Shown here in pieces: positions 1,555-62,918 of a DNA stretch of 64,000 nucleotides (position 1 is the stretch's first letter; every line of letters begins with the position of its first letter). Source of the DNA: Eledone cirrhosa (taxonomy: Eukaryota); the NCBI GenBank assembly GCA_964016885.1, contig OZ024740.1, forward strand, positions 63,240,001 through 63,304,000, given 5' to 3'. Made by a program: the position numbers and the translations under genes. The notes under the pieces are model-generated. The model did no database searches and was not told the DNA's origin. It worked only from the letters and a program-made list of their open reading frames with translations.

Positions 1555-2628
1555 CAAAATTAAGATAAATCAAATGAATTTAATCTAAATCAAAATTATG
1601 GGTGTCATGCCAGAAAGATATGCGCCATATCACCCGCAAAATAAACTCTAAGATTCTAACGAGTAGGTCCGAGCATTTTATAATAACTAGAGATTGATTA
1701 ACATATAAATAAACATGAATAATCACAAGAGATAATTTTTACAAGTGTGTAACCACACATAGCTAGGTAGGTAACTAAATAAAGTTGCCCAGAACTTCAA
1801 AAATAGATACCTTATAATATGATTAATCTTCCCTGTATATATTCCATTAAAGAAATATATTTCAGCAATTAATCAGATGGTAAACTACAGAAGTGGAGAC
1901 TTGGATTTTCAACAAGGAAGAAGTTCTAGCAATCCGTGTTTACACTTCAAGTTCAAATCAGTGACTGGCCAGCACGTGTTGTATTTACTAGAAATACACA
2001 CATCATACTAGCTTCGTCCCAGTGGCGTGAATAGGTTATATGTTAATCAATCTCTAGTTATTATAAAATGCTCGGACCTACTCGTTAGAAACTTAGAGCT
2101 TATTTTGCGGGTGATATGGCGCATGTCTTTCTGGCATGACACCCATAATTTTGATTTAGATTAAATTTATTTGATTTATCTTAATTTTGGATATAGATAT
2201 ATAAATACGGCTCCTTAATTGTAGAGCAAACTCTGTTGAAAGGACTCGACTGCTGTTTCTAGTTGTCTATAACCCTATTCACGCCACTGGGACGAAACTA
2301 GTATGATGTGTGTATTTCTAGTAAATACAACACGTGCTGGCCAGTCGCTGATTTGAACTTAAAGTGTAAACACGGATTGCTAGAACTTCTTCCTTGTTGA
2401 AAATCCAAGTCTCCACTTTTGTGGTTTACCATCTGATTAATTGCTGAAATATATTTCTTTAATGGAATATATACAGGGAAGATTAATCATATTATAAGGT
2501 ATCTATTTGTGAAGTTCTGGTCAACTTTATTTAGCTACCTACCTAGCTATGTGTGGTTACACACTTGTAAAAATTATCTCCTGTGATTATTCATGTTTAT
2601 TTATATGTTAATCAATCTCTAGTTATTA
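1555..2628 (+). mobile_element. Non-coding PLE-type mini-element A (~565-nt monomer plus inverted copy) in (TA)n
   Basis: 2039-2189 is the reverse complement of 1555-1705 and 2270-2628 of 1680-2040; tatgttaatcaatctctagttattata recurs at 2039 and ~2603; hammerhead half-motif GAAACTAGTA at ~2294. Confidence 0.8.
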
Positions 2629-2934
2629 TATATATATATATATATATATATATATATATAAATGGAATAGAATGAAACGAAATTGCATTTCTCACTCTTA
2701 GTACGGCACTTACTTAAATGTAAGTATGTATGTATACGTACATACATATATGTATACAGACGTACAGTAGTATGTATATATATACATACATGCACACATA
2801 TATATATGCACGTATCGGTTTACCGAACATTTATTATAATACTCGGTTTGTTTGTTTGTAAACAAACAGCCCGAATTATGCCTTACAGTGTTTAGGCAAT
2901 CACGTCACCTTTTTGTTCAACACTGACACAGGAA

Positions 2935-2975
2935 CGATGTACTAGTTTCAAGCTTATTAGCTATCGTCAGCATTG
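2935..2975 (-). ncRNA. Minimal type I hammerhead ribozyme (inverted copy, element B)
   Basis: Reverse complement: caatg CTGACGA TAGCT aata AGCTT GAAAC TA GTA catcg. Confidence 0.85.
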
Positions 2976-3425
2976 TATACCTTCCTGCCAGATGGTTGAA
3001 CGTCTGAAAGTATATACTTTCCTTATGCATATTACAAATAACAAAAAGTTGACGTGGTTGCCTAAACTGTACGGCGTAATTCGAGCTGTTTGTTTGTTTA
3101 CAAACAAACAAACCGAGCATTATAATAAATGTTCGGTAAACCGATACGTGCATATATATATGTGGGCATGTATGTATATAGATAAATACTACTGTACGTC
3201 TGTATACATATATGTATGTACGTATACATACATACATACATACATTTAAGTAAGTGCCGTACTAAGAGTGAGAAATGAAATTTCGTTTCATTCTATTCCA
3301 TTTATCGTTTTCGGTGTGCCCGGCCGACTGAACTCACTCGATATGCAAATTAGACTGCTCAGCCGTTAATATGCATTAGGAAAGTATATACTTTCAGACG
3401 TTCAACCATCTGGCAGGAAGGTATA

Positions 3426-3466
3426 CGATGCTGACGATAGCTAATAAGCTTGAAACTAGTACAACG
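3426..3466 (+). ncRNA. Minimal type I hammerhead ribozyme (element B)
   Basis: cgatg CTGACGA TAGCT aata AGCTT GAAAC TA GTA caacg; palindromic stem III ACTAGT; GUA cleavage site. Confidence 0.88.
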
Positions 3467-4431
3467 TTCCTGTGTCAGTGTTGATCAAAAAGATGACGTG
3501 GTTACCTAAACACTGTACGGCGTAATTCGGGCTGTTTGTTTGTTTACAAATAAATAAACCGAGCATTATAATAAATGTTCGGTAAACCGATACGTGCACA
3601 TATATATATGTGGGCATGTATGTATATATATACATACTACTATACGTCTGTATACATATATGTATGTACGTATACATACATACTTACATTTATATATATA
3701 TATATATATATATATATATATATATATATGCTCATATATATATATATATGTGTGTGTGTGTGTGTGTGTGTGTGTTTGTGTGTGTGTCTGTGTGTCTGTG
3801 TGTGTGTGTGTTGGCTTTCAAGAATCTAGACCAGTATTTCTCATTTTTTTTTTTCTTGAGGATGGTGAATTGTGTAAGTTTATGTTCTGAGTTTAAATCT
3901 TGCTGAGGCCAGCTTTGTTTTCTTTCCTACCGGGATCGATAAACTAAAGTAATGGGCCAGTTTAATGAATTTATCCCATATGTAGTGGGCTAACGCTACT
4001 TTGCGAACATGGTAGCGTTAGCTCATGACATATCAATCCACTCAAATAGCTATGTTAATATCTCATGACGTCAGACTGGTGCCGGTTACTATTGAAATAA
4101 TGTCACTGAAATACGTATAATCAAATAAATGCAATTATGTAACATCTGTCTTAACGTTTATTTCATACATGGAAACTCCGTTACTTTTGATCGCCATCTT
4201 TGTTAGATAGATACAACTGATGTGGAGTGCCCATTACCTACTTACACCTGTTTATCATCGGGACGTCACAACACTTACAGATAAACAACACAGTAATTAG
4301 CTATGTGTGTGTGTGTGTGTGTGTGTGTGTATGTGTGTGTGTGTGTGTGTGTGTGTGTGTGTGTGTGTGTGTGTGTGTGTGTGTGTGTGTGTGTGTGTGT
4401 GTGTGTGTGTGTGTGTGTGTGTGTGTGTGTG

Positions 4432-60784: not shown

Positions 60785-60820
60785 TCTTCTGATGAAGGAC
60801 TAGCGCCCGAAACGTTAAAA
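60785..60820 (+). ncRNA. Minimal hammerhead-like motif
   Basis: CTGATGA AGG actagcg CCC GAAACGTTA; weak stem I. Confidence 0.6.
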
Positions 60821-60991
60821 CCTCTTCTTTGCTATTTCAAGCGTTAAACTAATATATTACTTCTTTATAATGTACCGTTTGTATTGTTATTTCTGTTCAC
60901 CGTTTACATATATGTGTGTGCGTGTGTGGTAAGTATTTCTGTGGAAAAGGTAAAGGAAAGAAGAGTGTTCTATTAATAGTACAGAGCTATT

Positions 60992-61413
60992 TAATTATGT
61001 AATAAAAAACACAAAATAATTATTCCATTACCCAAGGTTTCACAAAGTTAGACGATTCTAACAGAACTGTTTGATATCGTTCATCAGAAGGAATCTTTAT
61101 TTGGATATCTATATTTATTTAAATGTAAGTATGTATGTATGTATGCAAGTATGTATGTATACGTACATACATATATGTATACAGACGTACAGTAGTATGT
61201 ATATATATACATACAGGCACAGATATATATATGCACGTATCGGTTTACCGAACATTTATTATAATGCTCGGTTTGTTTGTTTGTAAACAAACAAACAGCC
61301 CGAATTACGCCGTACAGTGTTTAGGCAACCACGTCACCTTCTGTTAGAATCGTCTAACATCGTGAAAGCTTGGGTAATGAAATAATTATATTGTGTTGTT
61401 TATTACATAATCA
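60992..61413 (-). mobile_element. Mini-element with ~75-bp inverted ends, a B-family core and an N-like degenerate hammerhead
   Basis: 60992-61066 is inverted at 61339-61413; 61120-61345 matches 2715-2915; reverse-complement CTGATGA motif at 61054-61095. Confidence 0.7.
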
Positions 61414-62766
61414 TATATATATATATATATATATATATATAAGTGGAAGGTTAGTAAAATCGAAGTTATGGCAGGAGGCCAAACCCACAAAGTAAAAATT
61501 CGGATTTGCACGAAGCACTCAATAAGAATGTATCAATAAATCGATAGATTACACCTTAGAGTAAGTAACATACGTTAAATAGCATGACAAATTGAAAGGC
61601 GTGGTTAGGGGACATAGCTACAGAAGCCGCCACAACAACGAAAATACAATCAGGTTAAATAATAAACCTGTACCGTATCGAGGGGTATTATGCAATATCC
61701 TCGATTGGTTTCTATGAAATTCAAAATCAACAATCCTACTTGCACAATATGCAAGTTTGTGGTATTTGAAGACCGAAACAGGGACTCACGTTATCAACAG
61801 GTTTCCGTACTGTACCTAAGCTGGTGTGAAGCGTAGTAGTAAACTACCAATAGTAGCAGACACTGTTTCGCTGTCACGTGTTTACTCCCCACTAAGGGAA
61901 ATAACCTCCTCTGTGTGTGTGTGTGTGTGTGTGTGTGTGTGTGTGTGTGTGTGTGTGTGTGTGTGTGTGTGTGTGTGTGTGTGTGTGTGTGTGTGTGTGT
62001 GTGTGTCTGTGACTGTGTGTGTGTGTGTGTGTGTGTGTGTGTGTGTGTATACTATTTATAAAAAAACACCAAAGATTCAAGGTATTTTCAAACAACCATA
62101 TGTTTCAACCGACAAAACTTCATCTGGGTTTCGTATGGTTACAGAGCTTTAATTTTTTTAATTTAAAAAAATGTTTTTTTCCAAAATTTATTTATGGTTT
62201 TATACTCAGACCTTCAGGAATTGGTTTAATATCGACATACTCAGAGTTTATTTTAGCCTGTCAATATTTCACATATGTTTATATATATATCACAACGATG
62301 ACAACAACTACAACTCTAGGAATCAAGAACATCGAAAATAGTACAAAATTACGAGAAATCTCCAACCACTATAGATTTTCCTCACTAGAAGGACACTAGG
62401 ATTCCCTAAAAAACTTTTTTCAAATAAGCTTTAACAAGATTAAAAGTGAGACGTTATCTTCAAAGTCAGTTTAATTGTAATTAGAATATGGTGTCTGCGA
62501 CAGTATGAAATGTTTTGTGAGAGACTTACAAGCTTATATTTATGATTAGGTGTAGATTTTCATTGATGAAGTTAAAAGCTTTAAGAAAAATGATAGACAT
62601 TATTATAGAATTATTTTTAGTGGCATAAAATGTTGTATGCAGTTAAAATCAATCCTGTTCAGATTTAAATATATCAACTGTTTGTTGCAGATAGGCAGAA
62701 AGAAATGCAAACGTTTCTCACCAGTGTGAATGTAAATCCTGTCCAGTACTCTTGAAAAACGCGTCC

Positions 62767-62918
62767 TATACTCTAACTAGTTTCATTCAGAAACAACAGT
62801 CTTTTGTGTTTATTAATTAGATGAGCAGATACATCACATGGGATATATATATATATATATGCTCATCAAATTAATAAACACAAAAGACTTGTTTCTGAAT
62901 GAAACTAGCTAGAGTATA
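62767..62918. repeat. ~60-bp inverted repeat around a short TA tract
   Basis: 62767-62827 versus 62860-62918. Confidence 0.8.

Follow-up and report, generated by a model that had tools for sequence, protein, structure and literature searches.

Non-coding hammerhead mini-elements in TA repeats of Eledone cirrhosa are probably inserted by enzymes of Penelope-like elements

A stretch of 64,000 nucleotides from Eledone cirrhosa (GenBank assembly GCA_964016885.1, contig OZ024740.1, positions 63,240,001 to 63,304,000 of the forward strand; the whole stretch is referred to as the window) contains twelve short elements with hammerhead ribozyme motifs or parts thereof, and a preliminary description had regarded them as a swarm of unrelated, non-coding, self-cleaving parasites of Penelope-like elements (PLEs). 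All of these elements are present where they had been located, mostly directly against (TA)n tracts, but they are not of one kind. Five families (A, B, C, H and L) are non-coding mini-elements, here termed minis, which have likely been copied into (TA)n by PLE enzymes, and these are mixed with five truncated ends of coding PLEs (D, 16976, 54089, 59667 and 60785) and two pieces (N and 24419) that resemble the pseudo-long terminal repeats (pLTRs) of PLEs. The idea of a PLE-parasitic, non-coding population is thus well supported by the insertion signature for five of the twelve, and it fails for the five truncated ends.

Results

Insertion signature of the minis

The window copies of the five families and their hammerheads are as follows.

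1555–2626 (+): mini A, 565-nt monomer without an open reading frame (ORF); direct arm 2036–2626 (+), inverted arm 2040–1555 (−)
Near 2285–2310: hammerhead 3′ half of mini A, without canonical 5′ core
2661–3690 (+): mini B, monomer of about 445 nt; direct arm 3042–3690 (+), inverted arm 3034–2661 (−)
3431 (+) and 2970 (−): hammerheads of mini B, minimal type I with palindromic loop 3
8584–9086 (+): mini C, flanked by (TA)n tracts; monomer of 467 nt and terminal repeat of 36 nt
8786–8863: hammerhead of mini C, type I with stable helix III; predicted minimum-energy fold
16264–16762 (+): mini H, 316-nt monomer; direct arm 16447–16762 (+), inverted arm 16452–16264 (−)
16583–16622: hammerhead of mini H, U3-A8 core
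18391–18800 (+): mini L, 323-nt monomer, partial tandem; hammerhead at 18628–18670

The strongest link between these minis and PLEs is the way in which their copies end. Most loci were top BLAST matches and therefore biased to full-length young copies, position-ordered sets being available for C and D; arms were de-duplicated, and arms that were cut by the locus edge or shorter than 40 nt were dropped. In the families counted, the 3′ ends lie at two fixed sites (59 of 63 arms in C, 37 of 38 in A, 35 of 35 in H and 33 of 36 in L), and they adjoin TA repeats (55/63, 37/38, 35/35 and 27/36, respectively). When two arms of A, C, H or L are arranged head to head, each arm uses one of the two sites in 55 of 62 pairs; a single pair uses the same site twice, and 6 have another end. 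The queries partly fixed the end of one arm in these pairs, whereas the partner arm was unselected. B was left out of this count, as simple repeats spoiled the parsing, and the same signature was seen in B by eye. The opposite arms also share sequence variants: in C, subfamily variants are shared at 0.95 between opposite arms versus 0.13 between sites, and in C, H and A, rare variants are shared at 4–8% versus 0.2–0.4%, which indicates either a single source for both arms or a later homogenisation.

This pattern has its counterpart in coding PLEs. The partial-tandem and inverted layout is, as had been noted before, the same as in the coding PLE at 19059–24237, which likewise has two 3′ ends, 55 nt apart. 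A PLE protein has been found in vitro to cut and extend both strands, to cleave at AT-rich sequences and to start reverse transcription at two internal sites, by which the genomic tail is defined; this protein is predicted to be a dimer, and hammerhead cleavage was not needed in vitro (PMC11167929; here and below, published work is cited for the accessible portions of the sources). PLE tails often occur at one end only (PMC8557442). As the two-site signature is known for PLEs, we infer the kind of helper from its occurrence in the minis, and it would tie the minis to PLE enzymes more directly than the published arguments from co-occurrence and homology.

Sequence properties of the minis

Monomers of about 310–570 nt had been reported for the elements, and this is correct for the five minis, all of which form arrays (C with a period of 457–472 and up to 7 head-to-tail units, H with 316 and up to 6 units, A with 565 and up to 2.7 units, B with a spacing of about 426–466, L with about 323); monomer arrays of N and 24419 are absent among the matches listed. 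The minis have no BLAST similarity to each other. Among the other elements, 24419 is not unrelated, as it resembles a 54089-type end. The GC content of the minis is 0.34–0.43, and neither poly(A) tails nor terminal inverted repeats are found in them; such terminal repeats as they have are partial tandems. They are mostly 92–99% identical to the window copies and appear to be young. Exact matches to the hammerhead regions amount genome-wide to 1916 for B, 1708 for H, 468 for L, 215 for C and 143 for A, and a 1.0-Mb sample of the genome contains 14, 5, 5, 0 and 2 sites of B, H, L, C and A, the number for B being possibly inflated by simple repeats. At the loci inspected, no family-specific ORF lies upstream of copies of any of the five; where PLE ORFs occur near mini copies, they belong to different families and stand at differing distances.

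One hammerhead or half-motif had been ascribed to each element. This is the case for B, C, H and L, the commonest copies of which carry a complete hammerhead (core, helices I and II, and helix III or palindromic loop 3); the window copy of L has GAAC where most sampled L copies have GAAA. A and 59667, however, have only a 3′ half without canonical 5′ core. In A this half is deviant (GAAG), and there is no CUGANGA or UUGANAA core in register in any of the tallied copies. By sequence criteria, we class B, C, H and L as putative retrozymes of the kind without long terminal repeats (non-LTR retrozymes), i.e. as non-autonomous PLEs. A appears retrozyme-like in its behaviour but lacks the complete hammerhead and is therefore not classed as a retrozyme.

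Some further short elements accompany the minis. A tandem 525-nt unit at 48420–49237 (with a relative at 17325–17750) lies between TA tracts and has a CTGANGA core without a GAAA half downstream; it occurs at 6 sites in the 1.0-Mb sample and is possibly a sixth mini. A short family at 24744–24936, 25187–25294, 47542–47694 and 49272–49408 is very abundant, at 24 sites per 1.0 Mb; it lies in TA tracts with its arms head to head and has a strong hairpin and no clear hammerhead. Finally, a diverged H-like piece, an N-like hammerhead, a B fragment and two small palindromic head-to-head remnants are found at 60514–60618, 61087 (−), 61147–61340, 62771–62914 and 59986–60026.

Coding PLEs and their truncated ends

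The following features belong to coding PLEs.

19059–24237 (−): coding PLE with an upstream ORF and a frameshifted reverse transcriptase (RT) plus GIY-YIG endonuclease (Pfam); inverted arm 23518–24237
19211, 23413 and 24030: pLTR hammerheads of this coding PLE
9140–9495 (+): D, truncated 3′ ends of a coding PLE arranged head to head; U3-A8 hammerheads at 9324 (+) and 9245 (−)
16846–17325 (−): 16976, truncated 3′ untranslated region (UTR)/pLTR of a coding Hydra-like PLE
53975–54189 (+): 54089, truncated 3′ part of a Hydra-like coding PLE (for the part that was queried)
59020–59906 (+): 59667, truncated 3′ part of a Hydra-like coding PLE whose unit measures 4242 bp; hammerhead 3′ half only
60625–60915 (+): 60785, truncated 3′ end of a coding PLE

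The complete coding PLE starts about 24 nt behind a TATA box; it is a template for the layout and at most a candidate helper. Each family was searched against the genome, and the sequence upstream of its copies was then read. Copies in the window are free of ORFs, as had been claimed for all elements, but D, 16976, 54089, 59667 and 60785 reach PLE ORFs in other copies. At locus L221, 59667 is repeated at a distance of 4242 bp with RT and endonuclease ORFs in between, at L222 copies of 54089 flank the ORFs, and at L225 the element 16976 follows downstream of an RT–endonuclease ORF. D is directly continuous with a preceding GIY-YIG ORF at L331 and L247, as is a 76% relative of 60785 at L291. Because they continue into PLE RT/GIY-YIG ORFs, these five are truncated pLTRs. 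The preliminary description had proposed to test whether the families are nothing but 3′ ends of coding PLEs, and the outcome is divided: five of the twelve are, five (A, B, C, H and L) are not, and for two (N and 24419) no parent was found.

L225 and L222 both have a CxCX5C motif, and L222 also has a DKT motif (read by eye, without a tree). The Hydra clade has been defined by a CxCX5C linker, the DKT motif, the absence of CCHH and (TA)n targets (PMC8557442), which suggests a placement of the parents of 16976, 54089 and 59667 in this clade. For D, the similarity search returned nothing, while an exact pattern gave 10,520 genome matches, and among the first 100 of these there was no tandem of monomer length.

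In the coding 59667 family (59690–59765; L176–L190), helix I and the 3′ half are accompanied by a hairpin in the place of the 5′ core, and this is so in all tallied copies. Further PLE pieces lie nested in TA tracts at 50508–51800 (GIY-YIG) and 54413–58750 (RT and GIY-YIG), and one of these families has pLTR hammerheads at 50691 (−) and 54677 (−).

The pLTR-like pieces N and 24419

Two elements are neither minis nor assigned to a coding PLE, and we regard them as pLTR-like pieces.

58792–58924 (−): N, 135 nt, begins at hammerhead stem I
47749–47817 (−): second copy of N, ends at the upstream 3′ site
24294–24635 (+): 24419, older solo element (80–86%) of about 340 nt with near-constant ends, no tandem

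The hammerhead region of 24419 is 75% alike over 84 nt to the 54089-type end; among 100 of its 131 matches listed, no monomer arrays and no parent were found. Monomer arrays of N are equally absent from 100 of 265 matches listed and from the loci inspected. The sole N array, at L230, arose by local duplication together with 21 nt of flank, which rules out that N is a 200-nt tandem mini. Upstream, some N copies run on past a TATA box into mixed microsatellite, over 0.6 kb or more, and the N promoter motif has 2006 exact matches, with many inverted pairs 4–12 kb apart and one same-strand pair 6.3 kb apart. The upstream continuation and the spacing of the promoter motif indicate that N belongs to a longer unit. 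On contig C1 (83679842–83691758) there are 12 same-strand copies of the motif with a period of about 1.08 kb, which may be a local array or a longer non-coding unit. A parent ORF of N was not found at L391, which has a LINE (long interspersed nuclear element) insertion, or at L392, which is microsatellite only, and a link to the PLE1 ORF at L018 was rejected as a chance neighbourhood.

5′ ends

The minis have no 5′-end hot spot (P 0.17–0.63 for C, A, H and L). In C, only 2 of 23 position-ordered arms start at the hammerhead cut site (279 and 281), again without a significant hot spot. Arms longer than 1.15 monomers are frequent (33/63 in C, 21/38 in A, 17/35 in H and 24/36 in L), in sets that are biased to long copies.

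D and N have preferred 5′ ends. For D, 18 of 30 position-ordered matches begin within a 12-nt stretch 30–41 nt upstream of the core, and most N copies begin at stem I. In both, i.e. in D (window 9287–9495; L331–L360) and N (L349, L391, L184), a TATA box stands about 30 nt upstream of an initiator-like CCAGAT start. As the copies mostly start about 30 nt behind the TATA box, they are likely short run-off cDNAs of a linear transcript, and the hot spot is probably the transcription start. We found no literature description of PLEs with such a clustering of 5′ ends about 30 nt behind a TATA box.

Hammerhead density in the window and in the genome

The genome of 3.0 Gb is rich in microsatellites, and the window contains one full PLE (19059–24237), the two PLE pieces at 50508–51800 and 54413–58750, and LINE remnants. 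A scan for type I hammerheads that demanded helices I and II plus helix III or a palindromic loop gave 9 matches in the window versus 0.32 per shuffle. When the U3-A8 core and an extra base after A9 were also allowed, both of which have been reported in PLE hammerheads (PMC4209133), there were 10 matches versus 0.1 per shuffle, three of them in pLTRs of the window's own coding PLE. The density of one motif per 3 kb that had been considered striking therefore has to be corrected: in the strict scan the window contains 1 per 6.4 kb, compared with 1 per 10.5 kb and 1 per 15.4 kb in the 200-kb flanks, 1 per 10.3 kb in 40 spread pieces of contigs C1–C4, and 1 per 13.3 kb across smaller contigs (20 pieces), with 0 in the shuffles of the sets outside the window. 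The 1.0-Mb sample, in which the small chromosomes (contigs C15–C27) are missing, thus has 1 hammerhead per 10–15 kb. A looser scan, run without shuffle control, gave 12 matches in the window versus 9.2 per 64 kb. Compared with the genome average, the hammerhead density is higher by a factor of about two at most in the window, which is typical in kind and somewhat rich, and the density is a genome-wide property rather than a local swarm. Bare CTGANGA cores are found 47 times in the window versus 27.5 by chance, so that core counting overestimates hammerheads.

There was no Rfam hammerhead model among 150 of the 200 window matches listed, only miRNA matches to simple repeats, and Rfam scans of A and C did not give a hammerhead model either; the Rfam models miss these variants. 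A tRNA-like match (RF00005, 31 bits, cut-off 29) at 63937–64000 is cut by the window end and may be a tRNA gene or the head of a short interspersed nuclear element.

LINE-like RT domains are plentiful in the window. Several copies of LINE-like elements with RT, and what is probably a Tc1/mariner remnant, are taken to lie at 11942–14800, 26019–29541, 30665–34255, 43132–45300 and 36518–37036, an assignment for which only RT domains were tested. At 51819–53453, two direct 638-nt copies, 998 nt apart and 99% alike, end at a TA tract.

Discussion

Mechanism and alternatives

How could the minis have been inserted by PLE enzymes? A complex of PLE GIY-YIG endonuclease and RT, probably a dimer, would cut both strands of a (TA)n tract and would prime at two sites 30–140 nt apart on RNA from one source, using the upstream site for one strand and the downstream site for the other, after which the two cDNAs would join head to head. 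The mini template would be longer than one unit and would have no preferred 5′ end. Some observations weigh against this explanation and against a role of self-cleaved circles in it. No mini matched the 3′ UTR of 96 endonuclease-adjacent stretches (2 Mb, less than 0.1% of the genome), apart from separate neighbouring insertions. Circular folding gives z-scores of −3.5 to −7.4 for the minis, which overlap those of 12 controls (+1.3 to −13, four of them at −3.2 or lower, with LINE stretches at −3.2 and −4.3). Family A is without canonical core in all tallied copies and yet has spread and formed arrays that reach 2.7 units, an observation that speaks against a need for cleavage. Moreover, units within H arrays (0.978–0.987) are no more alike than units elsewhere, and the same applies to 3 of 5 A arrays (0.92–0.96) in relation to other loci; the comparisons are biased, and an identity within arrays that does not exceed the identity between loci gives no support for one circle per array.

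What alternatives exist for such a PLE-mediated insertion? The original view that all twelve elements are independent non-coding hammerhead parasites agrees with the presence of hammerheads or half-motifs in TA tracts throughout and with the lack of ORFs in the window copies, but five of the twelve continue into RT/GIY-YIG ORFs elsewhere, which refutes it for these, and D, 24419 and N have no monomer tandems among the matches listed, the one N array being a local duplication with flank; we consider this view extremely improbable. Conversely, all elements might be solo pLTR truncations of coding PLEs, with arrays that arose after insertion by local amplification of the satellite type, as has been proposed to start from a solo pLTR (bioRxiv 10.64898/2026.07.22.740005). 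This description is correct for five families, and no parent search was exhaustive. Local amplification, however, would give locus-specific junctions, as in the N array at L230, whereas in each mini family one and the same monomer junction is found in both arms at dozens of loci that are not linked, and the arms end at the two fixed sites; we therefore see little room for such an origin of the minis. Only slightly better placed, and still improbable, is mobility through a LINE-type enzyme or a DNA-level route such as that of Helitrons or miniature inverted-repeat transposable elements. LINE-like RTs are abundant in the window, and no PLE partner that shares sequence with the minis was found, but the minis lack the poly(A) tails and terminal inverted repeats of such routes, and their two-site tail with an adjacent inverted arm matches the local coding PLEs and has been called PLE-specific (PMC11167929, PMC8557442).

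Within a PLE-mediated insertion, the template could take two forms. We lean slightly towards a hammerhead-made circle that is subject to rolling-circle copying; an uncut multimeric transcript is a serious candidate as well, to which we give a little under an even chance. Contigs from four runs of unknown library type were compared with H, and two runs from other organisms (X5 and X6) have one low-depth contig each across the head-to-tail joint; as a genomic tandem would give the same contigs, they are no evidence for circles. A more far-reaching version, in which the minis exist as circles of hammerhead RNA and are copied in rolling fashion by a dimeric PLE enzyme with one start site per strand, the core is dispensable as in A, and the hot spot of D and N represents PLE strong-stop cDNA, is tentative, and we rather doubt it in this complete form.

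Relation to known systems

Both kinds of elements, retrozyme-type minis and truncated PLE ends, are already known. Animal non-LTR retrozymes have been described as ORF-less tandem monomers with type I hammerheads, with PLEs proposed as helpers (PMC7229834), and have been classed as non-autonomous PLEs from co-occurrence and pLTR homology, with cleavage in only one of nine dimers tested (bioRxiv 10.64898/2026.07.22.740005). The minis resemble the retrozymes of these two sources in being ORF-less tandem monomers of a few hundred bases with a GC content below 50% that are scattered in copies from monomers to multimers and coexist with PLEs and, in B, C, H and L, in having one type I hammerhead per unit. 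They differ in that most of their hammerheads belong to the PLE kind, either minimal or variant, with palindromic loop 3, U3-A8 or one additional base after A9, and in that A is longer (565 nt) and has no canonical core. The 5′ inversions, the two fixed 3′ ends and the (TA)n targeting of the minis are likewise not part of the retrozyme descriptions in the portions accessible to us. Circular RNA has been demonstrated for published non-LTR retrozymes, whereas the minis are known from DNA alone. Putatively non-autonomous Chlamys PLEs such as MRC1 (PMC8557442) are similar in being non-coding and in having pLTRs, insertions of several copies head to tail, and microsatellite targets, but at the 3′ end they generally look like an autonomous family, and hammerheads are absent from most Chlamys elements; the minis have hammerheads, and no matching partner of theirs was found among the stretches searched.

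D, 16976, 54089, 59667 and 60785 correspond to the minimal-hammerhead pLTRs of PLEs that bear an endonuclease (Hydra, Neptune, Poseidon), for which partial tandems, inverted 5′ copies, one-ended tails, (TA)n targets and solo motifs in the thousands have been described (PMC4209133, PMC8557442, PMC11167929). In mostly open-access literature, we found no description of the two-site or strong-stop pattern in minis, comparable families possibly standing in supplements, and none for the combination of octopus, Penelope and hammerhead. What is new is modest: the counted rule of one site per arm in non-coding families, a mobile family without core, and a probable transcription-start hot spot.

The published case for the enzyme that moves animal retrozymes consists of co-occurrence, shared hammerheads and pLTR homology, and here four families bear the PLE insertion signature. 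The hammerheads of the minis are in different states, with a stable helix III in C, minimal forms in B and L, U3-A8 in H and no canonical core in A. As the minis are short, young and differ in this respect, they are a ready test set for PLE priming and for the need for cleavage. If the minis indeed were circular RNAs copied by a dimeric PLE enzyme, these substrates of 316–565 nt would settle the role of the hammerhead in PLE transposition, the mechanism would explain head-to-head PLE insertions with a one-sided tail, and A would show that the ribozyme core can be lost without a loss of mobility.

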